Shown one piece after another: positions 1 through 17,857 of a stretch of DNA of 22,413 nucleotides. The notes under the pieces were generated by a model. It was not told the origin of the DNA. It saw nothing but the letters and a program-made list of their open reading frames with translations, and did no database searches. Position 1 is the stretch's first letter. Each line of letters begins with the position of its first letter. The translations under genes were made by a program, and so were the position numbers. The DNA comes from Trueperaceae bacterium (lineage in GTDB: Bacteria > Deinococcota > Deinococci > Deinococcales > Trueperaceae), in NCBI GenBank assembly GCA_040905465.1, contig JBBDRK010000051.1, forward strand, positions 3,919-26,331, written 5' to 3'.

Positions 1-743
1 GTAGCAACCTTTTGATACTGGAAGGTGCGACTGTACAGCAGGATATAGAAACCGATACCGCCGGCACCGACCAATCCCAGAATCTCCGCTTCACGGATGT
101 TGAGTTCCAGCCTGAACAGGCTGTCACGTGCCAGGTCGGGCGCGATCTGACTCAATACCCCGTAGCGAATCTTTTGTAACCAGGTTGCCCCGGCGCTGTC
201 CAATGCCTCCAGGGGGCCCGGGCGCGCGTTTTCGAAGGCTTCGGCATAGAACTTGCTGAGCATTCCGGTCGAGTGGAGAGCGACAGCCAACACGCCTGGG
301 AGCGGACCGAGTCCCAGGGCACTCACGAACAGTAGGGCCAGCAGTATCACCGGTATTGCCCGGAGCGTCGTCAGGACCGATCTCAACGGCAGGTGTAACC
401 ACCTTGGCGTGAGGTTTGTGGCTGCCAGCAATCCGATGGGGAACGAGATCAAGATGCTGCAGAAGGTTCCCAGGAATGCGATCTGCAGTGTTTCAGCGAC
501 GGCCAGCATGGCGGTGTCTGCAATCGACAGGTCGGGAGGGGTCGCACGGCCGATGAAGTCGGCGACACGCGCCGGACTGCTGCGCAGTACGTCGCTTCGT
601 ACATCGAGATTGCTGATCGCCCACGCGACCAACAGCAGCAAGACGGCGAGTCCGCTATAGCGGAGAAGGCTTTGCCGCATGGTGGGCTGTGGATACGGCG
701 CTGACGCAAAACGTTCTTGCGAATCACGGTCCATGTTGCTCAC
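1..743 (-). CDS. phnE: PhnE-like ABC transporter permease (3' end truncated by window edge)
   Basis: Not in the ORF track; translated manually. GTG at 743 overlaps the phnC stop (GTGA). The frame stays open to the edge: MSNMDRD...AVAETLQIAFLGT...LRAIPVILLALLFVSALGLGPLPGVLAVALHSTGMLSKFYAEAFE...EALDSAGA...FRLELNIREAEILGLVGAGGIG. These are typical PhnE/PtxC motifs including the EAA loop. Substrate uncertain. Confidence 0.92.
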   Translation of the reverse strand, partial: MSNMDRDSQERFASAPYPQPTMRQSLLRYSGLAVLLLLVAWAISNLDVRSDVLRSSPARVADFIGRATPPDLSIADTAMLAVAETLQIAFLGTFCSILISFPIGLLAATNLTPRWLHLPLRSVLTTLRAIPVILLALLFVSALGLGPLPGVLAVALHSTGMLSKFYAEAFENARPGPLEALDSAGATWLQKIRYGVLSQIAPDLARDSLFRLELNIREAEILGLVGAGGIGFYILLYSRTFQYQKVA

Positions 744-1513
744 GGCTCCTCTGCGGCCGACTCGACCTCGCCCTCGTAGACTGCCCGAATCGCCGCTTCG
801 CTCAATGTGTCTGCTCGCTCGTCGAGGACGACGCGCCCCGCGCGCAGGCCGATGATCCGGCTGGCGTAACGGCGCGCCAGGTCGGGTTGATGCAGGCTCA
901 TCACCAGGGTAGCGGTTCGTCCCTTGCTTACTTCTATCAGCAGATTCAGGGCGTCGTCGGCGAGCGCTGGATCGAGGCTGCTGACGGGCTCGTCCGCGAG
1001 AATGATCTCGGGTTCTTGGGCCAGCACCCGGGCTATGGCCACGCGCTGCTGCTGTCCGCCGCTGAGCGTATCGCATCGCTGCGCCGCTTGATCCCGCAAA
1101 GCGACTTCATCGACCGCCTGCATGGCGATATTCTTGTCGTGCCTACTGAAGTGGCCGAACAAACTCGCCACTGCATGTGCGTGTCCTAACCGTCCCCAAA
1201 GCACATTCTCGAAAACCGTCGCCCGCTCGACCAGGTTGAAGCTCTGGAATACGAAGCCCACCCGAACGTCGTGGCGGCGGGCATTGGGCGCGGTCTTTTC
1301 GTATCCCAGAACGTGCAGGCTGCCAGTGGCCGAGTGCACATAGCCATTGATCAGGCGCAGGAGTGTCGTTTTGCCGGCACCACTGGAGCCGATGAGCGCG
1401 ACACGCTCACCCTGAGGGATGGTGAGGCGATCGATATCGAGGACCGCCTTGCCAGGATCGTCGTAGTAAACCTGGATGCCCGACAGAGCGATTGCTTCGG
1501 CAGCAGTCTGCAC
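740..1513 (-). CDS. phnC: PhnC-like ABC transporter ATP-binding protein
   Basis: Walker [11 protein letters not shown]-loop FQSFNLVER, PhnC-typical NVLWGRLG, signature [13 protein letters not shown], Walker [14 protein letters not shown]-loop SLHQ. Confidence 0.93.
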
Positions 1514-1525
1514 CTGAGGATGGTA
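1514..1525 (-). promoter_or_regulatory. Putative leaderless -10 element (TACCAT-N6-GTG) for phnC-phnE
   Basis: The minus strand reads TACCAT cctcag GTG with no Shine-Dalgarno. This matches the TANNNT-N5-7-start arrangement of leaderless genes. A small GC hairpin at 1551-1565 follows the phnD stop. Confidence 0.5.
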
Positions 1526-1566
1526 GGCGATTGCCGGTCCTTGCCCGGCCCGCCGCCCTGCGGCGT

Positions 1567-2487
1567 TTATTCGCCCTGCTCTACTTCCGCCACTAGTCCG
1601 TAACGCCGGGCAAGGTCACGGACGCCGTCGTATGCACTGTCCTCCACCCGAACGTAGCCATCCGGACTGTAGACGTACTGGAGCAGATGGCGATAGTCGG
1701 GTTCGTTGAGTTTCAGCATCGCCACCGTAAAAGTCTCGGCGAGCTCGGGTGAAAACCCTCGGCGCGCGATCACAGCGTGCGACGGAATGGGATCGGACTC
1801 GGCGATCCAACGGATCTGCTGCAGTTGGTCGGGGCGCAAGGAAACAGTGACATACTCGCTTGCTCCCGCGGCATCGACGAAACCGTTGATCACGCTTTCG
1901 ACTGCCTGCTGATAACCGCCCGCGAAGTAGACATTTCCAAAGAACTCCTGCGGATCGTCGCCGGCTTGCAGCAGCCCCGCTTGGACTAAGATATCCAACG
2001 GATAGAGATACCCGGACTCGGAAATGGGGTCCGCAAAGGCGACGCTGCGCCCCCGTAGGTCCTCGATCGTCTCGATGTCGCTGTCCGCGCGTACGAATAT
2101 GCGGCCGTGATACACGTCGTTTCCGCGGTAAACCTCTCCCAGTATCACCTCGGCACCTGCCAGTTCATGTGCCAAGACGTAAGGCAAGCCTCCCATGAAC
2201 GAGATGTCCGCGGTGCAATTACGCAGCGCTTCCACTGCCGCTGCATGGTCCAGCGCGACGAAGCCATCTACCGGTACACCCAGTTCCTGCTCGAGGTAGT
2301 CGCTGATGACTTCTACATCGTCGACCAGTTTTTCAGGGTTCTCTTGGGGAATGTATGCGAGCGTCAGCGGGCGCGAGGGGCCAACTTCAATGTCCAGACA
2401 GTCGGATGATTGAGCCGCCGCACCTGATAGTCCAACGGTTACGAGCACCACCATCAGTACCCTGGTGCATCTGCCATGTTGCTGCAT
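1567..2487 (-). CDS. PhnD/PtxB-family substrate-binding protein with atypical ligand-site residues
   Basis: Signal peptide; PhnD-fold motifs YLEQELGVPV, AVEALR, YHGRIFVRADSDIETIEDLRG, FADPISESGYLYP, SDPIPSHAVIAR; GGAGG RBS upstream; adjacent to phnC/phnE. Confidence 0.9.
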   Translation of the reverse strand: MQQHGRCTRVLMVVLVTVGLSGAAAQSSDCLDIEVGPSRPLTLAYIPQENPEKLVDDVEVISDYLEQELGVPVDGFVALDHAAAVEALRNCTADISFMGGLPYVLAHELAGAEVILGEVYRGNDVYHGRIFVRADSDIETIEDLRGRSVAFADPISESGYLYPLDILVQAGLLQAGDDPQEFFGNVYFAGGYQQAVESVINGFVDAAGASEYVTVSLRPDQLQQIRWIAESDPIPSHAVIARRGFSPELAETFTVAMLKLNEPDYRHLLQYVYSPDGYVRVEDSAYDGVRDLARRYGLVAEVEQGE

Positions 2488-2511
2488 CGTATGTCCTCCA
2501 TCCGTTACGCG

Positions 2512-4434
2512 TTATCTCAGTACAGGGCCGTACTCTTCGACCAGCTCTTCGTACTCTTCGTACCGGGATTCTGCCAGTGCCCAGTCATCCTGTTCGATCG
2601 CCGCTTTGATCTCATCCAGTTTGTCGGCGACTTCGAACACCAGCCCAGCGTTGCCGTAATCTTGCAGGCCGCTGGAATCGGCACGCAGGTCCGGAGCGAC
2701 AGTGTCGATCAGCAGGCGCGCGTGAAAGGAGTCCTGCCGCGGAATCAACATCGATCCCAATGTCGTCGCAAATGTTGTCAACTCCCCCCAAGCCAGCTGG
2801 AACGGCGTATTCTCGTCGTCGAAGACTTCATAGGGTTCATCGGCCGCCCCGACGGTCCGCAAGTACTCGGACAAGTCCGCGAGTTGCTGGTCGTCCAAAT
2901 CCATCTGGAAGCGCCTGTTCTTCCAGTTGGCTACATCTTCCAGTGTCGCCAGTGAGCCGTCGTGGAAATACGGGGATGTGTACGCGGAGTTGAGCAGAGT
3001 CGGCGTCTCAAGGTAGTTCGCGAAGCCATAGTCACCGCTCGCATCGTTGATCGAGCCGATATTCCACTGCTCGCCGTCGGCGAACAGAGAACCCTGGGTG
3101 TGGCAGGCGGCGCAGGACATGCCGCCCATCATGCCCTCGTAGGGCGTTTCAAAGATGACCTGACCACGGCGCGCGCTCTCGGACGCACGTTCGGTGAGCG
3201 TCCCATCCGCGTTCAGATAGGAGTTCGGCAGGAAATCGAACTCGAGCACATACGCAACCAACGCGTCGAGCATGAACTCGGTCGGTTCCGGACCGCCGAA
3301 CTCTTGAACGTGGACATTTCGAAGGAAGGCGCGCAGGCTGCCGAAGCGCCCGTCGCGGCCATAAGGGGCGGTGAAACGCAGCCCTCGTAGCGACGGTATG
3401 TCCAAGGAGTCGCTGCGTTGATCATTGAAGTACGGGTTGAAGAAAGCCCCATCGACGTCGACCGCCCCTGGTTGATGGCTGATGCCGGGAATGAAGAATG
3501 ACCGGTTGATGTCACTGCGGTTGTGGCAGGTCGCACAGGCAAGGCCGATGCTGCGCGCCGGCCCACCAAAAACCTCCGGTGAGTCGAACACCATGTCCCC
3601 GAAAGCTACCAGCGGGATGTCGGCTTCATCGAATCCGCGAGCCTCGAAGTTCAGCCGCAGTAGGGGCAATGGAACCTGGTCGTTGAGGTTGGTGCCGGGG
3701 GGCGTCCATACGGGGATGGCGGCATTCTCGGCGGTCACCGGGATGGGAGCAAAGCGCTGTCCGACGGGGGTGTCGGTCACGAAGCCGCCATCTTCGAAGT
3801 TGGTGATGAGGTAAGGCTCGATGACTGCCTTGGCGGCAGCGAATTGGCCCGGGTCAGCTGCTGTTCCGCCCAAGCCAACGATGCCCGCATTGCCTGCGCT
3901 GTGGGCCATATCCAGCCAGGCGCGACCCAGCGACCCGAAGGCTTCCGGGTCTGCCTCGCTGATGAAGTCCTGACCGAAGGCGCGATAGACTTGTTGGGCC
4001 GCGAGCACGTCCTGCAGTGCCGCGCCGGGTGACGAAAGCTTTTCTTCGGCCTGGCTGACATAGAATCGTACTGTTTGGGAGACGGCACGAGTCGTAGCAT
4101 CGAATAGGGCGCTAGGGTTCTGCTTGCCGATCGCCTGTTCGATAGGCACGACCAGCGTTGAGTCGAAGGCGTCCTCGACCGATTCGAGAGCTTCAAGAAC
4201 CGAAGCGAACGGGTAGCCTTCTTCCGAAATGCTCGCCGTGTACTCTCGTTCCACGAGGTCCCAATCGATCTGAGGCCCCAGGTTCAAGTAAAACGTACTG
4301 CGCAAATAGGCGGCGGCTACCGGATGCCACGGCTGTGCCGGCACAATATCTGCAAAGACGGTGTAGGTACCCATTCCCATAGCCAGGAGACAGAACAGAA
4401 TCAGTAGACGTCTCGGAGCACCTTGCCTCAGCAT
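2512..4434 (-). CDS. Secreted di-heme cytochrome c, bacterial cytochrome c peroxidase/MauG superfamily-like, with extra N- and C-terminal helical domains
   Basis: N-terminal signal peptide; two CxxCH motifs (CATCH at 3523-3537, CAACH at 3100-3114); bCcP-like motifs PSLRGLRFTAPYGRDGR and ETPTLLNSAYTSPYFHDGSLATLEDV; AAGGAAGGA RBS. Confidence 0.85.
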   Translation of the reverse strand: MLRQGAPRRLLILFCLLAMGMGTYTVFADIVPAQPWHPVAAAYLRSTFYLNLGPQIDWDLVEREYTASISEEGYPFASVLEALESVEDAFDSTLVVPIEQAIGKQNPSALFDATTRAVSQTVRFYVSQAEEKLSSPGAALQDVLAAQQVYRAFGQDFISEADPEAFGSLGRAWLDMAHSAGNAGIVGLGGTAADPGQFAAAKAVIEPYLITNFEDGGFVTDTPVGQRFAPIPVTAENAAIPVWTPPGTNLNDQVPLPLLRLNFEARGFDEADIPLVAFGDMVFDSPEVFGGPARSIGLACATCHNRSDINRSFFIPGISHQPGAVDVDGAFFNPYFNDQRSDSLDIPSLRGLRFTAPYGRDGRFGSLRAFLRNVHVQEFGGPEPTEFMLDALVAYVLEFDFLPNSYLNADGTLTERASESARRGQVIFETPYEGMMGGMSCAACHTQGSLFADGEQWNIGSINDASGDYGFANYLETPTLLNSAYTSPYFHDGSLATLEDVANWKNRRFQMDLDDQQLADLSEYLRTVGAADEPYEVFDDENTPFQLAWGELTTFATTLGSMLIPRQDSFHARLLIDTVAPDLRADSSGLQDYGNAGLVFEVADKLDEIKAAIEQDDWALAESRYEEYEELVEEYGPVLR

Positions 4435-4543
4435 CTGATTTTCCTTCCTTCCGCGCCATTGAAGAACGAGTCACGAATCAGGTACGAAGCCGCCGCGAGA
4501 ACCGAGGCGGACCTGCAGTAACGCTGGCCGGCTCGAATCCGGT

Positions 4544-5218
4544 TCATTCGATGACTTCGCCGCGTACCAGGGTGGCGAGCTCCTTGGAGATCACGACTCT
4601 TCTGCCGCCGATCTCGATGTGGAGTAACCCGCCGAGTGGTTCCCGTTCGAGTACCAGCACGCGCTGACCCGGATGAATCCCGAGCTTGGCGAGGTAGGCG
4701 AGGACGTCCGCGTCCTGGGTCCGCAGCCGTGAGAGCAGCAGGGCCGCGCCGATATCGACCGCGGTGAGGGGCGTGTTGGGTGTGTTGGGCAAGTTGCCAT
4801 CGAGGCTGGGGATGGGGTCGCCGTGCGGGTCGTGCGTCGGGTGATCGAGTAGTGCCGCCAGGCGTTCGGTAAAGCGATCCGAAATGACGTGCTCTATCAC
4901 TTCGGCCTCGTCGTGGACCTCGTCCCAGGAGTAGCCGAGATGCTCGATCATGAACGTCTCGAGCAGACGATGCCGCCGCATGAGCCGGAGGGCTTCGCGC
5001 TCGCCTTGTTCAGTGAGCCGTACGCCGCGGTAGCGTTCGTACTCGATTAGTCCGCTGTCCTGCAGGCGGGCGAGCATCGCGGAGACGGAGGGAGATGAGA
5101 CGCCGAGTACCTCAGCAATGGCGTTCGTTGAGGCGGGTTTGCTGTTGGAAACGGTCCAGATGGCCTTGAGGTAATCCCCGACCGAGGTTGAGAGGTGGGC
5201 ATCTTGAGATATAGACAT
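4544..5218 (-). CDS. mntR: DtxR/MntR-family metal-dependent transcriptional repressor with C-terminal FeoA/SH3-like domain
   Basis: GDYLKAI, HTH (IAEVLGVSSPSVSAMLARL), RRHRLLETF, VHDEAEVIEH, PTHDPHGDPIP and a FeoA-like tail. Asp in DYLK and Glu in EAEVIEH are the Mn-type ligands, rather than the Met/Cys of iron-sensing DtxR. Start moved to ATG 5218 because the listed TTG lies at the -10 element. Confidence 0.92.
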   Translation of the reverse strand: MSISQDAHLSTSVGDYLKAIWTVSNSKPASTNAIAEVLGVSSPSVSAMLARLQDSGLIEYERYRGVRLTEQGEREALRLMRRHRLLETFMIEHLGYSWDEVHDEAEVIEHVISDRFTERLAALLDHPTHDPHGDPIPSLDGNLPNTPNTPLTAVDIGAALLLSRLRTQDADVLAYLAKLGIHPGQRVLVLEREPLGGLLHIEIGGRRVVISKELATLVRGEVIE

Positions 5219-5223
5219 GTCTA
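5212..5223. promoter_or_regulatory. Perfect palindrome TAGACATGTCTA, candidate MntR/DtxR operator
   Basis: 12-bp AT-rich perfect inverted repeat covering the predicted transcription start and the ATG of the regulator. It resembles TTAG...CTAA boxes of DtxR-family repressors. Confidence 0.7.
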
Positions 5224-5229
5224 AACTCA

Positions 5230-5258
5230 ACTATAGGGGAGACTTCTATTTCTGTCAA
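5230..5258 (-). promoter_or_regulatory. Sigma70-type promoter of the mntR operon
   Basis: Minus strand TTGACA (5253-5258) - 17 nt - TATAGT (5230-5235), 11 nt before the ATG. Confidence 0.8.
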
Positions 5259-5357
5259 TGTCGGCCCGGTGCACCCGACTTCGCAGAGCATGAAAGAGGG
5301 TCGTGGCATCCTCGTGACTCCCCGGCCGGTATCTCCACCGCCTGGTTACCGGCCACT

Positions 5358-5386
5358 TTGAATCGCCGGCGACTCGCTGGTATCGT
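5358..5386 (+). promoter_or_regulatory. Putative divergent sigma70-type promoter
   Basis: TTGAAT (5358-5363) - 17 nt - TATCGT (5381-5386) with an extended TG, upstream of the ORF at 5439. Confidence 0.5.
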
Positions 5387-5438
5387 TGGGGCAACAGCTG
5401 TCTCGATCGGCGCAACTGGAAGGAGGGCAAAGGAAGTC

Positions 5439-5828
5439 GTGTTCGCACTAGCTACACCGCGATCGGGTCCTCTTCGCGAGGATCTCGTGAGGCGGCGAGC
5501 GGGCCAACTTCTAGCCGCCCTCCTCCTACTGTTGCTGTCCGGGCTGCCGCAGGTCGGCATCTCCGTCAGTAGCCTCGAACTGAGCGAAGAGCGCCTGCAG
5601 TCGGTGCCGGTCACTCGCTCGCTGCTGCTGGACAAGCTGCTTCCTGAGAGCACGTCGCTGACGCCGCCCCTGAACTCGAATTTCCCGCCGCTGCTCTCGG
5701 CGCCACCTGCTGCGCTCTCGCTACCTGTTCCAGCCAGTCACTACGCCGACAACGATACTCACAGACCGGCATGGTGGCTGCTTGACCTCATGTCCAACCT
5801 CTATCGACATCGATCCAACTACATCTAG
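5439..5828 (+). CDS. Hypothetical protein with N-terminal hydrophobic segment and Pro/Ser/Leu-rich body
   Basis: GTG after AAGGAGGG/AAGGA; RRR followed by LLAALLLLLLSG (signal or TM segment). Alternative start GTG 5487. No family recognised. Confidence 0.4.
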   Translation: MFALATPRSGPLREDLVRRRAGQLLAALLLLLLSGLPQVGISVSSLELSEERLQSVPVTRSLLLDKLLPESTSLTPPLNSNFPPLLSAPPAALSLPVPASHYADNDTHRPAWWLLDLMSNLYRHRSNYI

Positions 5829-5904
5829 ACAGGTTACCCAGCGACCGACGAGACTCATCGCGTTTCAACGGCTCCCGCTTTCACGGCGGCGGCAAGGGGT
5901 AACC

Positions 5905-6057
5905 ATGACAACAGCAGACATTCGCAACAACGAGCCGGGCGTAGCTACCGCGGCACATTCGCCAACTGGCATCGTTCCAGCCTGCGGGGCGTTCCGCCAC
6001 CGAATCTGTACCAGTGCCGACGCGACCTTCAACATATTCCCGGGATGCGGTCGATGA
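5905..6057 (+). CDS. Putative 50-aa small protein (3 Cys, 2 His)
   Basis: AAGGGGT RBS then ATG 5905; the stop overlaps the next ATG (ATGA at 6054-6057). Confidence 0.35.
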   Translation: MTTADIRNNEPGVATAAHSPTGIVPACGAFRHRICTSADATFNIFPGCGR

Positions 6058-6437
6058 AGGGGCTCGATGTAGGCAACCTTCAGAAGGATGCGGTGACGCA
6101 AGGTGCCGAAACCGGAGAGGCGCGGCTTGCCGGTCTGCCGGGCCGGGGAACGCTGCAAGTGTGGCGAGGCCGCAGGCACGACGTAATTCGGATCCTGGGG
6201 ACCTGGCGGCGGCAGCAGAATTCCGATGACCTGGCGACGCTTCGAGAAGCGATGGAGAGCGCCCAGCCGATCATCTACGAAGGCTTCCTCGATGACCCGG
6301 CAAACGTCGACCGGCAGGAGGTGCGGGCAGAGGTCGTGGTCTCCTCCATCAGCTCCTATCAACTCGGTGGACGCGGCGAAGAACCGTACTGCTTCGTGAA
6401 CTTCCTGCCGCGCGAACCCGAGGAGGTGGCAACCTGA
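6054..6437 (+). CDS. Hypothetical protein (127 aa)
   Basis: Protein-like composition and GC3-rich codons; ATGA coupling to the upstream small ORF (alternative start 6045). Confidence 0.55.
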   Translation: MKGLDVGNLQKDAVTQGAETGEARLAGLPGRGTLQVWRGRRHDVIRILGTWRRQQNSDDLATLREAMESAQPIIYEGFLDDPANVDRQEVRAEVVVSSISSYQLGGRGEEPYCFVNFLPREPEEVAT

Positions 6438-6440
6438 CCT

Positions 6441-6566
6441 GCCTCGGACGCCGGCTTGCCACAGCAGCCGGCTGAACAGTCTCGAAACCGGCCTCTGCTA
6501 GCCTGGAGGCCACATGTGCGGCGGAACCCTATCGGGCGTTCCGCCGCCCGTCTCGACTGCGAGGCC
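6441..6566 (+). promoter_or_regulatory. Multi-stem structured leader overlapping the antiporter RBS and start (candidate cis-regulatory RNA)
   Basis: Complementary pairs: 6441-6446/6560-6565, 6450-6456/6466-6472, 6477-6481/6555-6559, 6490-6495/6506-6511 and a 10-bp perfect stem 6518-6527/6538-6547. Confidence 0.35.
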
Positions 6567-7527
6567 AACGGGGGGCACGACGACAAGCGATCTGATAACT
6601 CTGGCGCTGGGGACGCTTCTGCTCTATCTGGGCGGCGAGGCGCTGGTGAGGAGCGCCATTCGGCTCTCTTCCCAGTGGGGAGTAAAGCCGATGGTCATCG
6701 GCCTGACGATCGTGGCTTTCGGAACGTCGGCGCCCGAGCTGTTCGCTTCTCTCCTGGCCGCCCTGCGCGGAACGACCGATCTCACCATCGGCAACGTCAT
6801 CGGCTCGAACACCGCCAATATCGGCTTGATCCTGGGCGTTACGGCGCTTATCTCGCCGATCCGAACCCACGCCATGTTCATCAGGCGTGAGGTGCCGTTC
6901 ATGCTCGGCGTGGCCGTCGTCCTGTTGGCGTTGGTTCTGACAGGCAACATCGGGCGGCTGGCCGGGGCGTCACTCCTTGGCCTGACGGCCCTTTACCTCG
7001 TGGTCCTGTTGCACGGAGGCGAGGCCCCCGATGTAGAGCAGGAGTTCAACCGGGAGTACGGCGAGGAGCGACGCGCTCCGTCGCTGCTGCCCTGGCTCGG
7101 CCTGGGTGCGGGTCTGCTGTTGTTGAGCGGCGGCGCCCACCTTCTGGTAAACGGCGCTTCCGGCATCGCCCGGTCGCTCGGGATCGCCGAGCTGACCATC
7201 GGGCTGACGATGGTGGCCGTCGGCACCAGCCTCCCGGAACTGTTCACATCGGTCGTGGCCGCGCTGCGCCAGGAGCCCGACATCGCCCTGGGAAACGTCG
7301 TCGGTTCCAATATCCTCAACGTGCTCTTCGTGCTGGGAGCCAGTGCACTGGCGCGGCCGCTACCGATAGCCGCGGGCAGCGGCGTGATCTGGGACGTGGC
7401 GGTGATGCTCGGCTTCAGCTTGCTGCTTATTCCGTTCCTGCTCACTGGACTGCGTCTCGCAAGGCGCGAGGCCGCTCTCCTGCTGGCCGCGTACGCAGGC
7501 TATGTCGTCTACCTCTTCGCGACATGA
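6514..7527 (+). CDS. Calcium/sodium antiporter (CaCA superfamily, YrbG-like)
   Basis: Two alpha-repeats, GTSAPE...GNVIGSNTAN and GTSLPE...GNVVGSNILN; about 10 TM segments; GGAGG before ATG 6514. Exact start uncertain. Confidence 0.92.
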   Translation: MCGGTLSGVPPPVSTARPTGGTTTSDLITLALGTLLLYLGGEALVRSAIRLSSQWGVKPMVIGLTIVAFGTSAPELFASLLAALRGTTDLTIGNVIGSNTANIGLILGVTALISPIRTHAMFIRREVPFMLGVAVVLLALVLTGNIGRLAGASLLGLTALYLVVLLHGGEAPDVEQEFNREYGEERRAPSLLPWLGLGAGLLLLSGGAHLLVNGASGIARSLGIAELTIGLTMVAVGTSLPELFTSVVAALRQEPDIALGNVVGSNILNVLFVLGASALARPLPIAAGSGVIWDVAVMLGFSLLLIPFLLTGLRLARREAALLLAAYAGYVVYLFAT

Positions 7528-7621
7528 CCGCTCGAGATCCTACGGCCGCTCCGCCTCCGCGCGACACTCCCCTATCGCGACTGTGTCGGCATCGGAACGT
7601 AATGGAGCGGGCGCAAGGCTG

Positions 7622-7630
7622 TGATACATT
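7622..7630 (+). promoter_or_regulatory. Putative extended -10 (TGaTACATT) for the oxidase operon
   Basis: TGnTANNNT match about 75 nt upstream of the coxB start; AGGAGG RBS before GTG 7706. Confidence 0.4.
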
Positions 7631-7705
7631 GGTTCGGTGTTTGTCGATCACTCGGACGTCGAGTAATCGACTCCGGTTTCATCCCAACCGTCCTAGGAGG
7701 AACAA

Positions 7706-8836
7706 GTGCCGGTAGTTCGTTGGTTCCGTCGGGTTGCGCCGCCGCTCGGCCTGACGTTGATGTTGGGCGGATGCGTCACCGATGGGCCTCGCTCCATGAT
7801 GCATCCCGCGGGCGAGGTAGCTCGTCAGCAGATGGACCTGTTCATGTGGACCTTCTGGCTCAGCATCGCCGTTCTGATACTGGTCGTCGGAGTGCTGACT
7901 TTCGCGATCATACGATTTCGCAGGCAGTACACCGGGGACAAGGACGCGATTCCGAACCAGGTTCACGGCAGCGTCCCTCTGGAAATAACCTGGACGATCA
8001 TCCCCGTGATAATCGTGATCCTGGTAGCCGTGCCGACAGTGCGGGCGATATTCGCGACCGAGGTGCGGGTGACGGCCGAAGAGGGCGATACGATCGTCAA
8101 CGTCACCGGATATCAGTGGTGGTGGCGCTTCGAATACCCGGAGCTGGGAATAGTCACGGCCAACGAGTTGCACATGCCGGTGGGAAGCCGACTGATACTC
8201 GACCTGGACTCGGCCGACGTGCTGCACTCGTTCTGGGTGCCGAAGTTGGCCGGTAAGCGTGACATGATCCCGAACCAGGAGAACCAGCTGTGGCTGTCGG
8301 CCGATGAGCCGGGGGTTTACTACGGCCACTGCGCCGAACTGTGCCTGGGCGCCCATGCCTACATGCGATTCCGCGTGATCGTTGACACTCAGGAGGATTA
8401 CGACGCCTGGGTCGCCGCTTTCCAGAACGCGGGCCAGCAGGCCGAAACGCCTGCGCAACCGGTTCAGGACGCTCAACTGATCGATCAAGGACGCGCCTTG
8501 TTCGCGCAGAAGGGCTGCATCGGCTGCCATACGGTAGAGGGCTTCGCCAGCTTCCCGACCGGCAACCCCGATTACCCGAACCTGACCAACTTTGGCCTGC
8601 GCAGGACGGTAGGCGCCGCGGTCCTGGAAAACAACCGCGAAAATCTTGCCCGCTGGATTCGGAATCCGCAGGCGGTAAAACCGGGCAACTACATGCCTAC
8701 GCTATGGCGAGCCGATGATCCCGCCGCCGAGGAGGAGTCCAGTGCGATCGCTGCCTACCTCCTCAGCCTCGGCAGCGAGGGTCAGGAGCCGCGTACGCAG
8801 GCCGACGCCCGAGGAGGATCCGATGGCGATAGGTAG
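7706..8836 (+). CDS. coxB: Cytochrome c oxidase subunit II with fused C-terminal cytochrome c (caa3 type)
   Basis: Lipobox-like LGGC; LEITWTIIP; GYQWWWRFEY; CuA ligands DVLHSFWVP and CAELCLGAHAYM; heme c motif CIGCH with KPGNYMP. Confidence 0.96.
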   Translation: MPVVRWFRRVAPPLGLTLMLGGCVTDGPRSMMHPAGEVARQQMDLFMWTFWLSIAVLILVVGVLTFAIIRFRRQYTGDKDAIPNQVHGSVPLEITWTIIPVIIVILVAVPTVRAIFATEVRVTAEEGDTIVNVTGYQWWWRFEYPELGIVTANELHMPVGSRLILDLDSADVLHSFWVPKLAGKRDMIPNQENQLWLSADEPGVYYGHCAELCLGAHAYMRFRVIVDTQEDYDAWVAAFQNAGQQAETPAQPVQDAQLIDQGRALFAQKGCIGCHTVEGFASFPTGNPDYPNLTNFGLRRTVGAAVLENNRENLARWIRNPQAVKPGNYMPTLWRADDPAAEEESSAIAAYLLSLGSEGQEPRTQADARGGSDGDR

Positions 8837-10739
8837 GCAACCCGCCGCAACGGGTGATTCAGGTGTTCTTTCTCGTCCGACCTGGACGACCGGTTGGGCG
8901 AGCTGGCTGACGACCGTCGACCACAAGCGGCTGGGGTTGCTCTACCTGGTCAGCAGCTTCATCTTCCTGGGATTCGGCAGCATCGAGGCCTTCCTCATCC
9001 GGCTCCAACTGGCGCGACCGGAACAGCAACTGATCTCCCCGGACGTCTTCAACCAGATGTTCACGATGCACGGGGTGACCATGGTGTTCCTGGCGATCAT
9101 GCCGATGGGCATCGGATTCGCCAACTACTTCGTGCCGCTGATGATCGGCGCTCGCGACCTGGCGTTCCCCAGGCTCAACGCCTTCGGCTACTGGGTCTAT
9201 GCGCTTGCCGGGCTCTTCCTCTACACCAGCTTCTTCCTCGGCGGAGCGCCCGACGTGGGCTGGTTCGCCTACGCTCCGCTCACCTCGCTGTCGAACAACC
9301 CCGGCAACGGAGTCGACTTCTACATGATCGCGCTGCTGGTGAGCGGTGTCGGCACGCTGGTAACGGCCATGAACCTGATCGTCACCGTCATCAACCTGCG
9401 CGCTCCGGGGATGACCTTCATGCGCGTCCCGCTGTTCGTGTGGATGATGCTGGTGACCTCGTTCCTGATCATCTTCGCGTTCCCGCCGCTTACCATCGCG
9501 CTGTTCCAGGTGATCATGGACCGCACCTTCGGCACCCTCTTCTACGTGCCCGAAGCCGGCGCGTTGCCGATCCTCTGGCAGCACCTGTTCTGGATCTTCG
9601 GCCACCCGGAGGTCTACATCATCATCCTGCCTGCGTTCGGCGTGATCTCCGAGGTCATCCCCACCTTCAGCCGCAAGCCGCTCTTCGGTTATCCGATCAT
9701 GGTTCTCTCGGGCATCTTCATCGGCTTCATGGGTTTCGCGGTGTGGAGCCACCACATGTTCACCACCGGACTCGGCCCTGTCGCCAATACGGCGTTCGCG
9801 CTGACTTCGTTCGTCATCGGCATTCCTACCGGCATCAAGGTCTTCAACTGGATCGCCACCATGTGGGGCGGACACGTGCGCTTCGCGGTGCCGATGCTGT
9901 ACGCCACGGCCTTCCTGATCACGTTCACGCTCGGCGGCATAACCGGAATAATGCTGGCCGTGCCGCCGTTCGACGCTCAGGTGCAGGACAGCTACTTCGT
10001 GGTCGCCCACTTCCACTTCGTGATGGGCGGCGGCGCCCTGCTGTCGTTCCTGGCGGCCCTGTACTACTGGTTCCCGAAGATGACCGGCCGCATGATTCCC
10101 GAGGGTCTGGGGCGCATCGCCTTCTGGCTGGTCGTACCCGGCTTCTACCTGATCTTCTGGCCACAACACTTCGCCGGGATGGTAGGCATGCCCCGGCGGG
10201 TTCAGACCTACGAGGCCAACATCGGACTCGACGCCTACAACATGATGTCGACGGCCGGGACCTTCGTCTTCGGCGCCGGCATGTTGCTGGTGCTGTTCAG
10301 CGCCATATGGGCGATTCGCAACGGCAAGATCGCCGGCGACGATCCCTGGGACGGCCGGACACTGGAGTGGGCGACCACCTCTCCCCCGCCCCACTACGAC
10401 TTCGATGTTGTGCCTGAAGTAAATGACCGGGATCCGGTCTGGCTGCAGAAGCATCCCGAACTGCTCGAGCGCCGCGATGCGATTTCCGAAGCGGCCGACC
10501 CCGAGCACATGCCTCCGGAACACGTGGAGCAGGAGTCCATCCATATCCCCGGGCAGTCGTGGTACCCGTTCATCGCAGCCCTCGGCACGTTCGTCGGCTC
10601 CTATGCGCTGCTCTACCACAACCTGTTCCTGGGCCTGTTCGCCTCGCTTATCATCTTCATCTCCTGCTACGCCTGGGCGTTCGAGGGCGTCGGGGGTCAT
10701 CACGAGCACGTAACGCCGACCGTTGGAGGTCGATCATGA
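8823..10739 (+). CDS. coxA: Cytochrome c oxidase subunit I (A1-type heme-copper oxidase)
   Basis: TVDHKRLG, FTMHGVTM, DLAFPRLN, WIFGHPEVY, WSHHMF, PTGIKVFNW, VAHFHFV, GMPRR. Start set to ATG 8823 after GGAGG. Confidence 0.97.
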   Translation: MAIGRQPAATGDSGVLSRPTWTTGWASWLTTVDHKRLGLLYLVSSFIFLGFGSIEAFLIRLQLARPEQQLISPDVFNQMFTMHGVTMVFLAIMPMGIGFANYFVPLMIGARDLAFPRLNAFGYWVYALAGLFLYTSFFLGGAPDVGWFAYAPLTSLSNNPGNGVDFYMIALLVSGVGTLVTAMNLIVTVINLRAPGMTFMRVPLFVWMMLVTSFLIIFAFPPLTIALFQVIMDRTFGTLFYVPEAGALPILWQHLFWIFGHPEVYIIILPAFGVISEVIPTFSRKPLFGYPIMVLSGIFIGFMGFAVWSHHMFTTGLGPVANTAFALTSFVIGIPTGIKVFNWIATMWGGHVRFAVPMLYATAFLITFTLGGITGIMLAVPPFDAQVQDSYFVVAHFHFVMGGGALLSFLAALYYWFPKMTGRMIPEGLGRIAFWLVVPGFYLIFWPQHFAGMVGMPRRVQTYEANIGLDAYNMMSTAGTFVFGAGMLLVLFSAIWAIRNGKIAGDDPWDGRTLEWATTSPPPHYDFDVVPEVNDRDPVWLQKHPELLERRDAISEAADPEHMPPEHVEQESIHIPGQSWYPFIAALGTFVGSYALLYHNLFLGLFASLIIFISCYAWAFEGVGGHHEHVTPTVGGRS

Positions 10740-11338
10740 GCCACACCGTGGTCGCTCCCACGCACGAGGAGTACCGCTCCACCAAGCTTCCCGACATCAA
10801 GCTGATGATGTGGATCTTCCTGGCGTCCGACTGCATGTTCTTCGGGTCGCTGATCGGCACCTACCTGGTCTACAAGGATAAGAGCCTGGTTGGTCCGTAT
10901 CCGATCGACATCCTCAACATCCCCCTGACCACCGTAAGCACCTTCGTCCTGCTGATGAGCTCGTTCCTGATGGTGCTGGCGCTGCACTCGCTGCGCAGCA
11001 ACGACATCCCCAAGTTCCGCCTGTGGACCTTCGGGGTGTGCTTCTTCGGAGCGATCTTCCTCGGTTTCCAGGTCTTCGAGTTCAGTCACTTCGTCCACGA
11101 AGGGCTGACGTTGAGCCAGAACCTCTTCGGAACTACGTTCTTCGTGCTTACCGGGACGCACGGAGTCCACGTGACCATCGGGGTGCTGATGCTGCTGTCG
11201 CTGCTGATCGCTTCGTACGTCCGCCCGGTGGCCGCCAAGGACGCCGTTTACCTGGAGGTGACCGGTCTCTACTGGCACTTCGTGGACATCGTCTGGATCG
11301 TGATCTTCACGGTCATCTACCTCGTAGAGTTCGTCTAG
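10736..11338 (+). CDS. coxC: Cytochrome c oxidase subunit III (short form)
   Basis: MWIFLASDCMFF, TFVLLMSS, FFVLTGTHGVHV, GLYWHFVDIVW. ATG 10736 after GGAGG, with ATGA overlap with coxA. Confidence 0.95.
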   Translation: MSHTVVAPTHEEYRSTKLPDIKLMMWIFLASDCMFFGSLIGTYLVYKDKSLVGPYPIDILNIPLTTVSTFVLLMSSFLMVLALHSLRSNDIPKFRLWTFGVCFFGAIFLGFQVFEFSHFVHEGLTLSQNLFGTTFFVLTGTHGVHVTIGVLMLLSLLIASYVRPVAAKDAVYLEVTGLYWHFVDIVWIVIFTVIYLVEFV

Positions 11339-11351
11339 GAGTAACGGGTCA

Positions 11352-12401
11352 ATGAGCCACAAGCACCACGGTAATCCGGTAGCGACCTACATCATCACGG
11401 CGCTGATCCTCGGGGTAATCACCTACCTGGAGTTCGCACTCGTGGAGTACGACGTCGCCTGGCTCTCGCGAGCCGCCACGATTTTCTGGCTGATCGCGCT
11501 GTCGGTCATCAAGTTCGTGATGGTGATAGCCATCTTCATGCACCTCAAGGACGACGAGAGAACCTACACCGGTTTCTTCGGCAGCGGCATGGTCATCGCC
11601 CTCGCCACCTTCCTGATTCTGCCCCTGCTGTTCACCGTCCGCGGCCTGGAGGGCCAGGCTTCGGCTGCCCCCGGCGGCGAGGCGCACGCCGAAGCGGACG
11701 CCGGCGACGCCGGCCACGCGGAGTCCGCGCTGAGCGCGGAGACCCGCGAATCGATCGAGAGCGACGGCTACAACCGGTCGCAGTCCGAGCAACTCGACAC
11801 GCCGCCGCCGATGCGGCGTTCGCTGCGCGTCGAACCGCCGGCCGCCCGCGAACCGGAAGCCGGCCTGCGCACGGGGGAGCCGGACGCACAGGCCGATGAG
11901 CCGGCCGCCGCTCCGGACGACGCCGCTCCGGCGCAAGCCGACGAGCCGCAGGCCGAGGCAGATGCGCAGCAGGCAGCGGAGGAGCCCGTTGCGGAACTCG
12001 AGTTCGACCGCGAGCTGGGCGAGCAGACTTACGTCTCGAGCTGCCAGGGTTGCCATCAGGCCGAAGGCCAGGGCATGGCGGGGGTATTCCCGCCTCTCGC
12101 CGGCAACATGCCTCGACTCCACAACGCCGAAGGCGGCCGTGAATACCTCATCGACGTGCTGCTGCACGGCCTGAGCGGCCAGATCGAGGTCAACGGCGAG
12201 ACCTACAACGGCAGCATGCCGCCGTGGACCAGCCTGTCCGACGAGCAGATCGCGGCGGTGCTCAATCACGAGCTGACCGCCTGGGGGAACGACGCCGAGC
12301 TGACCGACTTCACCCCAATCGCCGGGCAGGAGGTGGCCACGCGGCGAGGCGAAAGCCCGGGTGACCTGCTCGAGCGGCGGGCACAATTGCAAGCGCAATG
12401 A
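11352..12401 (+). CDS. Oxidase subunit IV-like 3-TM domain fused via an acidic linker to a c552-like cytochrome c
   Basis: N-terminal 3 TM segments with KFVMVIAIFMHLK (subunit IV motif); Ala/Glu/Pro/Asp-rich linker; CQGCH (12042-12056), FPPLAG, GGREYLIDVLLHGLSGQIEVNG, YNGSMP, LSDEQIAAVLNH. Confidence 0.88.
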   Translation: MSHKHHGNPVATYIITALILGVITYLEFALVEYDVAWLSRAATIFWLIALSVIKFVMVIAIFMHLKDDERTYTGFFGSGMVIALATFLILPLLFTVRGLEGQASAAPGGEAHAEADAGDAGHAESALSAETRESIESDGYNRSQSEQLDTPPPMRRSLRVEPPAAREPEAGLRTGEPDAQADEPAAAPDDAAPAQADEPQAEADAQQAAEEPVAELEFDRELGEQTYVSSCQGCHQAEGQGMAGVFPPLAGNMPRLHNAEGGREYLIDVLLHGLSGQIEVNGETYNGSMPPWTSLSDEQIAAVLNHELTAWGNDAELTDFTPIAGQEVATRRGESPGDLLERRAQLQAQ

Positions 12402-13036
12402 CCGCGGCAGACGCCGGCCCGATCCGGGCGATCGCCTTCGACTGGGGCGGCATCTTCACCGAGGGCACCTTCGACTCCGACGCGATCATCAACCTCGCCG
12501 CGCTTTGCGAGGTGAGCGAGGAGCGAATCGCCGAGCACTACTTTCCGCTGATGGCGGAACTCGAGACCGGCGCTTTCGATGTCGACGACTTCGTGGCCCG
12601 ATTCCAGACGGAATCGGGCATCTCGTTCGAACCGGAACGCTTTCGCTCGACCTTCCTCGCGTCCGGCCGCGAGAGGCCGGCCATGTACCGCCTGCTGGCG
12701 GCGATCCCGGCCGGTTACTCGGTGGCGGTGCTGTCGAACAACGTGCCTCTGCTGTGCGACCGGGTGCGAGACGACGAGCGCATGAAGCGAGTCGACACAT
12801 TCCTCTTCTCCAACGAACTGGGCGTGCGCAAGCCCGATCCTGCCGCTTACGCGGCCCTGGCGGAGGCGCTCGGTTTGCCACCCCGAGAGATCGTCTTCAT
12901 CGACGACAGCGCCGACAACATCCGGGCCTGTCGCGACCTGGGCTTCAACGGCATCCACCTGCGCGGCTTCAGCGCATTCCTGGCCGAGTTCGCTCAGGTC
13001 GCGCCCGACGTGCCGCTGGCCGACGTGCATGGCTGA
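12398..13036 (+). CDS. HAD-superfamily phosphatase (YihX-like)
   Basis: Motif I AFDWGG, motif II LSNN, motif III RKPDP, motif IV FIDD; ATGA overlap with the upstream gene. Confidence 0.88.
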   Translation: MTAADAGPIRAIAFDWGGIFTEGTFDSDAIINLAALCEVSEERIAEHYFPLMAELETGAFDVDDFVARFQTESGISFEPERFRSTFLASGRERPAMYRLLAAIPAGYSVAVLSNNVPLLCDRVRDDERMKRVDTFLFSNELGVRKPDPAAYAALAEALGLPPREIVFIDDSADNIRACRDLGFNGIHLRGFSAFLAEFAQVAPDVPLADVHG

Positions 13037-13370
13037 GAACGAGCGGGCGATCAAGCTCCTGCAAGGCTACCTCTGGCATCCGCGGGAGTTGGAACTCGAC
13101 CTGGCCGACTACCTGCCGAGCGAGCTGGCTGGGGGCGTGCACCTGCTGTGGGACCCGCTTCCGCAGGCACCATTCACCTTCTTCGACGACGGAACCCTCG
13201 CCGCCACCCAGCAGGTCTACCAGTTCACCGCCCTGAAGCTCGTGGAGGATGAAGAGGAGGACCCGTCGGGCATGGTTCCCTGGCTCGCCGAGACACTGCA
13301 GGAAAGGCTCGAGCGTACGCCCGAAGGGGTCGGCTGGCAGGTCTTCGAGGACTTGCGTGACGTCGGCTGA
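13029..13370 (+). CDS. DUF3208-like protein (Deinococcus-Thermus conserved hypothetical)
   Basis: LLQGYLWHP...LLWD...PFTFFDDGT...Q.VYQFT...TPEGVGWQVFEDLR pattern, recognised from memory of this family. Confidence 0.75.
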   Translation: MAENERAIKLLQGYLWHPRELELDLADYLPSELAGGVHLLWDPLPQAPFTFFDDGTLAATQQVYQFTALKLVEDEEEDPSGMVPWLAETLQERLERTPEGVGWQVFEDLRDVG

Positions 13371-13385
13371 GCCGGGAGCTCGCCG

Positions 13386-14690
13386 GTGACCGGGGAGTCG
13401 GCCAACACCGCCAGCACACCGGCGACGCAGCCGGACGGACCGATCCGGGCGACGGCACAAAGCTATGCCGTCTTCGTCGTTTTCGTCCTCGCCTACTTCT
13501 TCTCGTACTTCTACCGGTCCGCGAACGCCGTGATCGCCGAGGATCTCTCGCGAGACCTGGGACTGGGCCCGGCACAGCTCGGCCTGATGACCAGCCTCTT
13601 CTTCCTCGCCTTCGCGGCCGTCCAGGTGCCGCTGGGCGCGGCGCTCGACCGCTTCGGGGCGCGCTTCGTCACCTCGGGCCTCATGCTCTCTGGCGTCGTC
13701 GGTTCGCTGCTGTTCGCGGTCGCCGAGAGCTTTGCGCTCTTGGCGTTGGGCAGAGCGCTCATCGGGGCGGGTATGGCCGGCGTGCTGATGGGTTCGCTCA
13801 AGGCCTTCAGCGGCTGGTTTCCACCCCAGAAGTTCGCCACCGTTTCGGGCGTGTTCCTGGGCATCGGCTCGCTTGGCGCACTGGCCGCGGCAACTCCGCT
13901 GGCCGCCCTGAACGCGGCGATCGGTTGGCGCGCCGTATTCGTCGGTGGCGCCTTCCTCGTGTTGGCAACGGCAGCCGGAATCGCCCTCTTCGGCCGGCAG
14001 GCGCCCATCGCGAAACGCGCCGCTCCCGTCGAACCCGGCGAGCGCGGCTCACCCTGGCAGGTATTCGGATCGCCGACCTTCTGGCGCATCGGCCTGCTCG
14101 GCTTCGCGGTAACCGGCAGCATGTTCGCGTTTCAGGGCCTGTGGGCGGGACCGTATCTGATAGAGCGGATCGGACTCACGCCCATAGCAACCGGAAACCT
14201 GCTGCTCCTGCTGGGTATCGGGGTGAGTGGCGGCTACATGGTGGTGGGCTGGGTCGCCGACAGGCTGGGGCTGGCGCGCGTCACGGCAGGCGGCGCCGTC
14301 GGCATGCTGGTAGTCCAACTGGTCCTGGCCTTCTTCCCGGCGGGCTCGGCGCCGGACGGCCTGCTCGCCACCTTGTTCCTGCTGTTCGGCCTCTTCGGTT
14401 CATTCAGCGTGCTGTACTTCGCGCACGTTCGCCTGGTGTTCCCGCTGCACATGACCGGCCGGGCGATAACGGCAGTCAATCTGCTGGGAATCGGCGGCAG
14501 TGCCCTGCTGCAGTGGTGGCTCGGAGTGGTCATCGGCCTGTTCACGCGTACCGAGACAGGCGCCTACCCACCGCACGCCTACACCGCGATCTTCCTGGTG
14601 ACCGCTACCCTGGTGGCCGCTGCCCTGATTATCTACTGGCCGCTGCTTCGCGACGACGGCCGGGCGGCGGAAGCTCGAACCCGACCATAG
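13386..14690 (+). CDS. MFS transporter
   Basis: About 12 TM segments; motif A-like GAALDRFGAR and GWVADRLG; GRALIG; WFPP. Substrate unknown. Confidence 0.92.
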   Translation: MTGESANTASTPATQPDGPIRATAQSYAVFVVFVLAYFFSYFYRSANAVIAEDLSRDLGLGPAQLGLMTSLFFLAFAAVQVPLGAALDRFGARFVTSGLMLSGVVGSLLFAVAESFALLALGRALIGAGMAGVLMGSLKAFSGWFPPQKFATVSGVFLGIGSLGALAAATPLAALNAAIGWRAVFVGGAFLVLATAAGIALFGRQAPIAKRAAPVEPGERGSPWQVFGSPTFWRIGLLGFAVTGSMFAFQGLWAGPYLIERIGLTPIATGNLLLLLGIGVSGGYMVVGWVADRLGLARVTAGGAVGMLVVQLVLAFFPAGSAPDGLLATLFLLFGLFGSFSVLYFAHVRLVFPLHMTGRAITAVNLLGIGGSALLQWWLGVVIGLFTRTETGAYPPHAYTAIFLVTATLVAAALIIYWPLLRDDGRAAEARTRP

Positions 14691-14712
14691 CCGGCGGCCC
14701 GGGCGGCGCGGG

Positions 14713-16278: not shown

Positions 16279-16328
16279 CGGATTCCACCTCTCGAAGCCA
16301 GAATACCGTGCCACCGGGCACCGGCGGC

Positions 16329-17677: not shown

Positions 17678-17684
17678 CTCTGAA

Positions 17685-17830: not shown

Positions 17831-17857
17831 TCCGTCCCTTGGCCCGGTCTCTCCCGC

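Follow-up and report, generated by a model that had tools for sequence, protein, structure and literature searches.

The closest described relatives of the protein considered here are the oxyanion-binding proteins PtxB, PhnD, HtxB, AioX and ArrX. The phosphite ligands of PtxB from Trichodesmium (Te_PtxB) are Y55, S130 and H160, with Y208 as the cap, and PtxB of P. stutzeri is described as having an 'STS-H motif' plus a hinge tyrosine (Bisson, 2017, PMC5700983). Here we describe a gene from a 22,413-nucleotide stretch of a Trueperaceae genome (GenBank assembly GCA_040905465.1, contig JBBDRK010000051.1, positions 3,919 to 26,331 of the forward strand; hereafter the window), whose product shares with these proteins its Pfam family, fold, PhnC/PhnE partners and pocket positions, but in which His, Ser-Glu-Ser, Tyr and His replace Tyr, Ser-Thr-Ser, His and the cap. 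Unlike PtxB and PhnD systems, the cassette to which the gene belongs has no C-P lyase, ptxD or htx genes nearby, is obligately tied to a di-haem protein and stands under predicted manganese regulators, and its binding protein falls below the PhnD equivalog cut-off. On the evidence of sequence we lean, by a small measure, towards the reading that the cassette encodes a manganese-repressed ATP-binding cassette (ABC) importer, in which a PhnD-fold protein would bind a metal cation, probably manganese, and would be coupled to a periplasmic di-haem redox enzyme.

To our knowledge the described bacterial manganese importers are Nramp/MntH, the cluster A-I ABC systems, MntX, a P-type ATPase and ZIP, none of which has a PhnD-fold binder or a dedicated haem enzyme. 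MntABC, SitABCD and PsaABC (PF01297) are, as is proposed here, manganese-repressed ABC importers under MntR or Mur, and the His/His/Glu part of the cassette pocket resembles the His/His/Glu/Asp site of the MntABC type; however, they differ in binding-protein fold and permease type and lack a redox partner. FbpA, transferrin and phytotransferrin (ISIP2a) hold a metal between the two domains of class II lobes via Tyr, His and carboxylate, an arrangement like the metal site predicted here. That a type-I ABC importer can take up a bare metal ion is known from FbpABC, and the cassette would be an analogous importer derived from the PhnD family. Unlike FbpA and transferrin, the cassette protein has no detectable sequence membership of that group, and its regulation points to manganese and not iron.

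In EfeUOB, FtrABCD and Fet3-Ftr1 a periplasmic redox protein is likewise encoded with a metal transporter and presumably acts before it, but these iron systems combine cupredoxin, DyP or multicopper oxidases with Ftr1-type permeases, whereas here a di-haem c-type protein accompanies an ABC importer. With MauG, MbnH and the cytochrome c peroxidases (CCPs) the di-haem protein shares two CxxCH motifs, PF03150 and a PYFHDG-type motif, but it has 640 residues, an extra N-terminal helical domain and a C-terminal four-helix bundle. No paper linking a PhnD-family protein to MntR, Mur or a di-haem protein was found in the open-access literature searched. The cassette and its control region comprise the following features.

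1..734 (probable ATG 732-734), minus strand: PhnE-type permease, cut by the window start (TIGR01097, 240.2 bits against a cut-off of 216.7)
740..1513, minus strand: PhnC-type ABC ATPase (TIGR02315, 250.9 bits, just below the cut-off of 266.1; PF00005)
1567..2487, minus strand: PhnD-fold substrate-binding protein of 306 residues (PF12974)
2512..4434, minus strand: secreted 640-residue di-haem protein of the CCP/MauG superfamily (PF03150)
4544..5218, minus strand: DtxR-family regulator of the MntR type (PF01325, PF02742, PF04023)
5208..5227, palindromic: operator-like palindrome, core TAGACATGTCTA (5212-5223), which follows the -10 box immediately
5230..5258, minus strand: sigma-70-like promoter TTGACA-17-TATAGT, 11 of 12 matches

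Family and fold of the binding protein

The binding protein has a signal peptide of about residues 1-25 and is predicted to be secreted. The Phosphonate-bd profile (PF12974) spans it completely (E 3.1e-60; 204 bits, cut-off 27). Among NCBIfam models, the protein's score exceeds the cut-off of the broad TIGR01098 (174.2 bits against 112.05) but not that of the PhnD equivalog TIGR03431 (171.5 bits against 261.1). The PF01297 profile of the cluster A-I proteins (ZnuA/PsaA/MntC) gave no match at E <= 0.001. The closest solved relatives by sequence are three PtxB structures (5lv1 with E 4.6e-28, 5o2j and 5jvb) and HtxB, followed by ArrX, AioX and PhnD.

An AF2 model (pLDDT 88, pTM 0.80) has the two-lobe class II fold, for which the top Foldseek matches are PtxB, ArrX, HtxB, AioX and PhnD (E 1e-25 to 1e-19; 5lv1 1.9e-25). 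In a VIA structure search with the model, members of the family scored Z 24-27 (ArrX 27.0, PtxB 26.6). The nearest fold outside PF12974 was diferric human transferrin (3v83_A; Z 20.8, rmsd 3.8, 260 aligned), which ranked above every other family of bacterial binding proteins, including SsuA (Z 16.5), TctC-type proteins (about 14) and FbpA (12.7); Foldseek gave transferrin an E of about 1e-13 and a TMq of 0.63-0.66. Every match in a search of the ESM Atlas with PF12974 excluded scored below 0.9. By sequence and fold the protein is a member of PF12974 without the defining anion-binding residues. Because it lacks them and no genes for phosphonate or phosphite use lie near the cassette, the protein should not be classed among the binders of phosphonate, phosphite or phosphate.

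A rebuilt pocket

The initial annotation had picked out five motifs in this open reading frame (ORF; 1567..2487) as the marks of a rewired oxyanion site, and all five are present where it placed them. The residues concerned, all on the minus strand, are these.

2245-2247, minus strand: H81 of D80-H81 in DHAAAVEAL, a subfamily-specific pocket residue
2110-2112 and 2101-2103, minus strand: Y126 and R129 of VYHGR, the hinge Tyr kept and an Arg gained
2011-2022, minus strand: SESG (S156-E157-S158-G159), the helix-cap loop, with E157 at 2017-2019
1912-1914, minus strand: Y192 of GGYQQ, a Tyr at the canonical His position
1777-1779, minus strand: H237 of IPSH, a His at the capping position

In HMMER alignments, DH, SES, GGY and PSH of the query stand opposite DY, STS, G(S/T/A)H and PQY of the PtxB chains, and the HtxB chain reads P-N-D where the query has PSH. 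The combination of H, SES, Y and H occurs in neither of the two PtxB proteins aligned nor in HtxB (three solved binders, five chains). Read from the alignment at an ungapped offset of 26, H81 is the equivalent of Te_PtxB Y55, S156/E157/S158 of S130/T131/S132, Y192 of H160, H237 of the cap Y208, and Q48 of D22, the partner of the cap residue. The full pocket set is Q48, H81, Y126, R129, S156-E157-S158, Y192-Q193 and S236-H237. The set that holds the oxyanion is mostly lost, with only the hinge Tyr126 and two Ser retained and H81, E157, Y192 and H237 in the other places.

That the changed residues line the cleft, which the reading in the initial annotation requires, is borne out at the level of alignment by this one-to-one correspondence with the phosphite-contacting residues of Te_PtxB. 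By homology, they and Tyr126 should converge on the space of one small ion, because their PtxB equivalents all touch a four-atom anion. His, Glu, His and one or two Tyr in such a volume make a plausible candidate metal site, and a carboxylate in the centre of the STS loop should disfavour a bare anion.

The pocket is strictly conserved among close relatives, and its residues are not there by chance. A search of a protein collection gave 1425 proteins at E <= 0.001 among 8000 candidates scored, of which the best 120 (58-100% identity) were aligned; H81, Y126, R129, S156, E157, S158, G159, Y192, Q193, Q194 and H237 are each invariant in all 120. A filter-free search of 1.84 billion cluster representatives returned 6804 relatives at E <= 0.001, and of the best 150, which were compared, 12 have SESG with E157; each of the 12 shares at least 50% identity with the query. 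For comparison we used 62 canonical PhnD-family representatives, selected for His at the Y192 column. The canonical pattern that had been given in the initial annotation proved correct: Tyr stands opposite H81 in 54 of the 62, Thr opposite E157 in 45, His opposite Y192 in 62 (by selection) and Asp opposite H237 in 30; the canonical counterpart of S236-H237 is N-D. The subfamily also has Q48 versus mostly Ser, R129 versus Gln or Leu, and Q193 versus Asp (46/62). The pocket positions are among those that separate the subfamily from the canonical set.

The four substitutions are not of one age. H81 and E157 are specific to the subfamily, but Y192 and H237, which had been counted with them, are older and are shared with neighbouring clades. 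What is truly new in the subfamily is H81 and E157, together with R129, Q48 and Q193.

Other non-canonical pockets are found in sister clades of the PhnD family (P0123, P0127, P0131, P0135 and P0138; 40-52% identity), with D-M-S-G accompanied by D-E-Q and S-H, or S-S-S-G accompanied by D-E-Q. The family may therefore contain several unrecognised binders of the cation type. A metagenome scan with P0128, from the nearest clade outside the subfamily, found relatives of at most 39% identity only, which are uninformative on the gene context of that clade.

The cassette, its distribution and transfer

The five genes for regulator, di-haem protein, binding protein, PhnC and PhnE share one strand, and the PhnE ORF continues beyond the window to contig position C51:3696. 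Positions 1..5600 of the window contain a single sigma-70-like promoter, and the operon is without an intergenic terminator. A pattern scan of 185,579 species genomes confirmed 227 relatives, and the analysis was continued with the best 80 loci. In 77 of these, tblastn places the di-haem gene immediately upstream of that for the binding protein, and the three loci without a di-haem match (L014, L018 and L040) have less than 300 bp of upstream DNA. PhnC and PhnE follow downstream wherever the DNA of the locus reaches; one locus (L030) has the order PhnC-PhnE-di-haem-binding protein.

The loci span at least eight phyla. Many come from Alphaproteobacteria, and the others belong to Chloroflexota, Deinococcota (Trueperaceae), Methylomirabilota, Thermodesulfobacteriota/Dadabacteria, Acidobacteriota, Spirochaetota, Verrucomicrobiota and Myxococcota. 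The cassette is also carried by 42 plasmids of marine Rhodobacterales (35 of them conjugative or mobilizable), and in a quick tree identical binding proteins are common to five Rhodobacterales genera. In the same tree the window copy groups with Phototrophicaceae and then with Trueperaceae. The cassette is present in one of 25 relatives of the window's genome, and the operon (window 1-5260) has a G+C content of 60.4% compared with 64.7% for 5261-22413, both of which fit acquisition by transfer. The distribution is patchy and the cassette has spread by transfer.

Genes for C-P lyase, ptxD and htxA are absent from the window and from the recurrent neighbours in the 80 loci, as judged by crude ORF picking of the two nearest ORFs on each side, and the same survey found no genes of arsenic or selenium metabolism recurring beside the cassette. 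On the plasmids, copies with mntR lie inside a metal-gene island, for example on Phaeobacter inhibens plasmid pP54_b (66339-84290), along with genes for a DUF411 protein, a ZIP transporter, lspA/lnt, a Caa3_CtaG-type oxidase assembly protein and a cation P-type ATPase.

Next to the cassette, the window has a Na/Ca-exchanger family gene and a cytochrome c oxidase operon (6514-12401) encoding COX2 with a cytochrome c domain, COX1, COX3 and COX4 fused to cytochrome c. No link of the exchanger or oxidase genes to the cassette was seen in other loci; the Rhodobacterales loci have a Caa3_CtaG gene nearby. In Acidobacteriota loci (L023:4124-4933, and the same place in L025, L026 and L049) a gene for an outer-membrane-type protein with PF13557 (Phenol_MetA_deg) sits between paired TTAG-N6-CTAA boxes and the di-haem gene. 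This protein may serve as the channel by which the same substrate crosses the outer membrane; an identification of this neighbour as MnoP-like could not be established and was dropped.

A regulator of the MntR type

The listed ORF of the window's regulator starts with TTG at 5230, and the ATG at 5218 is the more likely start. The protein carries a C-terminal FeoA/SH3-like domain (PF04023), and its best relatives in the PDB are the manganese sensors 5zr4 (7.7e-51), DR2539 (8pvt, 1e-41), ScaR and SloR, all of which rank above IdeR/DtxR. A DtxR-family gene adjoins the cassette in 25 of the 80 loci, co-directional with it in Caldilineaceae, Dadabacteria and Thermodesulfobacteriota and divergent in Rhodobacterales. 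The window's regulator was aligned with 21 of these 25 neighbours, four mis-called ORFs being left out. At the position of Asp8 of Bacillus subtilis MntR all 22 regulators have Asp, and at that of Glu99, 20 have Glu and two have Asp. DtxR and IdeR carry Met10 and Cys102 at these two positions. Asp8 and Glu99 are named as conserved in the MntR family (PMC6860424). The PGAP label of the plasmid copy of the regulator is 'manganese-binding transcriptional regulator MntR'.

Promoter, operators and candidate regulon

The palindrome behind the window promoter belongs, with one mismatch, to the class TTAG-N6-CTAA and contains the regulator's probable ATG (5216-5218). The probable start codon therefore lies inside the regulator's own operator, about 11 nt after the -10 box, which implies a putatively leaderless or near-leaderless, autoregulated transcript.

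Boxes of this class were counted within 1 kb upstream of the di-haem gene in the 66 loci where its start is defined. An exact TTAG-N6-CTAA box is found there in 39 of them, and the class has 44 matches in 64.8 kb of upstream DNA compared with nine in 793 kb elsewhere. In Rhodobacterales the element, for example TTAGCCATGTCTAA, lies between the divergent mntR and the di-haem gene. A site of the same class, ATTTTAGTCGCGCCTAAAAT, is bound by DR2539 in the promoter of mntH (dr1709) (bioRxiv 10.1101/2024.02.12.579695), and the published alpha-proteobacterial MntR boxes before mntH closely resemble the cassette box (Rodionov et al., 2006, Table S5). Eight of the 66 loci, of the Hyphomicrobiales type and without the TTAG box, have MRS-like sites for Mur instead, one of them weak. 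These were recognised by the Mur-responsive consensus of sitABCD/mntH taken from Table S4, and number ten matches in 23 kb compared with 39 in 835 kb.

The window's own genome was scanned with a matrix made from 37 boxes of related loci, and five sites score above 14. The window promoter is the second-best site in the whole genome; of the other four, three lie upstream of a multicopper oxidase gene, a TctC gene and a ZnuA-family ABC operon, and one is a further site. The best site (C69:36205, at about 3206 of locus L083) lies 118 bp upstream of the multicopper oxidase gene (L083:1979-3088, minus strand), which is followed by a weak ZIP-like transporter gene (L083:798-1982, minus strand); from their sequences these genes are possibly a second oxidase-plus-transporter pair in the same regulon. 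Another box (C15:20590, at about 1272 of locus L081) precedes genes for a ZnuA-family (PF01297) binding protein (L081:1402-2400, plus strand) and an ABC ATPase, which probably form a classical MntABC-type system of the same regulon.

Loci of the Geminicoccaceae type (L024, L036, L041, L044, L053, L054 and L055) have a conserved leader, which lies about 200 bp upstream of the di-haem gene. Its promoter is overlapped by a Fur-like box, and short frames starting with ATG occur in a conserved stretch rich in A/T. This leader could be a leader peptide or an RNA element.

The di-haem protein

The CxxCH motifs of the di-haem protein, C300-H304 and C441-H445, lie about 141 residues apart, and PF03150 matches with 45.8 bits (cut-off 25.6). 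Among 69 aligned orthologues, at least 97% keep C300/C303/H304 and C441/C444/H445, and many Asp, Glu and Arg around the haem motifs are conserved too. The best sequence matches in the PDB are hydrazine synthase gamma, bacterial CCPs and an MbnH-like chain, and a PYFHDG-type motif aligns to the Nitrosomonas CCP. All specific NCBIfam models, among them those for MbnH and MauG, stay far below their cut-offs (TIGR04039, 48.8 against 362.85; TIGR03791, 42.9 against 443.85).

In the AF2 model (pLDDT 73), residues 38-213 form an N-terminal helical domain predicted with confidence and residues 545-640, at the C-terminus, a bundle of four helices; Foldseek gave weak CCP/MauG rows only (best E 6.8e-3). 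The fixed position of its gene in the cassette leads us to infer a periplasmic redox role for the protein, which would act on either the metal or the binding protein. The top VIA matches of the C-terminal bundle (window 2512-2805) are PsbQ/CyanoQ, with a Z of 12.9 that is in the uninformative range for helical bundles. PsbQ and CyanoQ are extrinsic proteins of the photosystem II manganese cluster.

A proposed manganese-repressed metal importer and its alternatives

In the mechanism that we propose, an MntR-type repressor would leave the operator overlapping the only promoter when cellular manganese is low, and the operon would be expressed. The binding protein would then capture a metal cation, most likely manganese, between its two lobes, with His81, Glu157 and His237, and Tyr126 and/or Tyr192, as the proposed ligands. 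At the N-terminus of the lobe-2 helix, Glu157 would take the place that an oxygen of phosphonate or phosphite has in PtxB. The loaded protein would dock on PhnE2C2 and the ion would be imported at the cost of ATP. The di-haem protein may oxidise Mn(II) or Fe(II) so that a phenolate-containing site can hold the ion; alternatively, it may reduce Mn(III)-ligand complexes and so release the ion. We read the ligand as a metal because of the adjacent MntR-type regulator, the boxes of the DR2539/MntR class or of Mur across phyla, and the metal-homeostasis neighbours on the plasmids. The metal character that had been suggested from the pocket residues is supported by these same three lines, though not proven.

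Several observations weigh against this reading. Sites with Tyr ligands suit Fe(III), or Mn(III), better than Mn(II). Tyr126 is conserved family-wide, and Y192 and [ST]-H237 are already present in clades nearby (38-41% identity) whose pockets still have Tyr81 and S-[STA]-S. An anion, possibly a co-bound one, could still be held by Ser156, Ser158 and Gly159, which are retained, and by the invariant Arg129. The PhnC and PhnE proteins look, by their TIGR profiles, like ordinary components of the phosphonate type. DR2539, a regulator of the manganese type, binds DNA in vitro with Fe2+, Zn2+ and others too (bioRxiv 10.1101/2024.02.12.579695), and in L046 and the Geminicoccaceae loci Fur-like boxes take the place of the manganese-type operators; on both counts iron could be the metal. 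The closest relatives, L001 and L002, have an ArsR-type and not a DtxR-type neighbour, although the TTAG-N6-CTAA box is still present.

The cassette is also not the sole candidate manganese importer in the genomes that carry it. In the window's own genome, which is 95% complete, Nramp is missing and two PF01297 (ZnuA-family) proteins are present, and five Rhodobacterales carriers each have two PF01297 proteins, with a match to Nramp in three, one of them strong. In these six genomes no phyletic complementarity was found, that is, no presence of the cassette where other manganese importers are absent.

A ferric-iron system is rather unlikely in our judgement. Here the di-haem protein would be a periplasmic ferroxidase, Fe(III) would be held by His/Glu/Tyr/Tyr (and perhaps the second His), possibly with a synergistic anion on Arg129 and the Ser-x-Ser-Gly cap, and the regulator would also respond to iron. 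The ligand set of FbpA from Neisseria and Haemophilus is His/Glu/Tyr/Tyr, the same composition as that proposed here. Oxidase-coupled iron uptake, as in EfeUOB and FtrABCD, is an established theme that counts for iron, as do the Fur-like boxes, the binding of DNA by DR2539 with Fe2+ too and the rank of transferrin as the nearest fold outside PF12974. Transferrin and phytotransferrin are themselves said to have arisen among phosphonate-binding periplasmic proteins, according to a review (PMC7676907, citing McQuaid, 2018). However, all 22 regulators have the Asp/Glu(Asp) pair of MntR and not the Met/Cys of DtxR and IdeR, the operators match the published sites of manganese regulons (mntH, sitABCD) of MntR and Mur, and the plasmid regulator is labelled MntR by PGAP.

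A further reading is the acquisition of Mn(III), or of mixed Mn(III) and Fe(III), which we regard as unlikely. By analogy with transferrin, the di-haem protein would oxidise periplasmic Mn(II) and the PhnD-fold protein would hold the trivalent ion in a Tyr/Tyr/His/His site, with Glu157 replacing the synergistic carbonate. Ceruloplasmin oxidises the metal before transferrin is loaded, and the di-haem step may be likened to this.

We think it distinctly unlikely that the ligand is a small molecule, an oxyanion or a preformed metal-anion complex such as Mn-phosphate, with His, Glu and Tyr as hydrogen-bond partners and a di-haem enzyme that makes or consumes the ligand. The kept Ser156, Ser158 and Gly159 of the anion-binding helix cap, the kept Tyr126, the gained Arg129 and the unchanged type of PhnC and PhnE speak for it. 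The family has moreover retuned its pocket for phosphite, hypophosphite, arsenite, arsenate, phosphate and glycerol phosphate, to judge from PDB titles, and neighbouring clades have yet other pockets (DMSG/DEQ, SSSG/YEQ). Against this, a bare anion should be repelled by the carboxylate at the central STS position, genes for phosphonate, phosphite, arsenic or selenium do not recur beside the cassette in the 80 loci, and metal sensors, from the predicted regulators and boxes, regulate the cassette in several lineages.

Very unlikely, in our view, is a maturation pair, in which a MauG/MbnH-like di-haem protein would oxidatively modify a residue of the binding protein (e.g. a Tyr or Trp) and the modified form would be the metal binder or a sensor. 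The strict adjacency of a di-haem gene of the MauG superfamily and a gene for a small secreted protein, among whose invariant residues are Tyr, Trp and His, would suit such a pair, for which MauG-preMADH and MbnH-MbnP are precedents, as their PDB titles indicate. The chemistry of MbnP is a precedent of this kind. However, the scores against the MbnH and MauG models are far too low, and the di-haem protein is twice the size of MauG, with extra helical domains. A lanthanide or arsenic reading was rejected, as carboxylates in the pocket are too few, Cys is absent from it, and genes of either kind are missing from the neighbourhood.

Implications

If the reading of the cassette as a manganese-repressed importer is correct, it would be an undescribed and widespread bacterial system for the uptake of a metal, most likely manganese. 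Thousands of annotations as 'phosphonate ABC transporter substrate-binding protein' and 'cytochrome c peroxidase' would then be mis-assigned in Alphaproteobacteria, Chloroflexota, Acidobacteriota, Thermodesulfobacteriota, Deinococcota, Spirochaetota and others, and estimates of phosphonate use in marine and soil metagenomes would be affected. Redox-coupled manganese uptake would also tie bacterial nutrition to the environmental Mn(II)/Mn(III) cycle. The presence of the cassette beside metal genes on conjugative roseobacter plasmids makes the proposal testable in cultured roseobacters (Phaeobacter, Tritonibacter and Roseovarius).

A PhnD-family clade with a Tyr/Tyr/His/His/Glu pocket under metal control is of evolutionary interest. 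If it binds a metal as proposed, the subfamily would be a natural experiment on the change from an anion site to a metal site, a step that has been proposed at the origin of transferrin. Should the ion be Mn(III), the cassette would encode the first bacterial Mn(III) importer. It would then also show, in a living bacterium, the step from PhnD to transferrin that has been proposed for the transferrin and phytotransferrin of eukaryotes.

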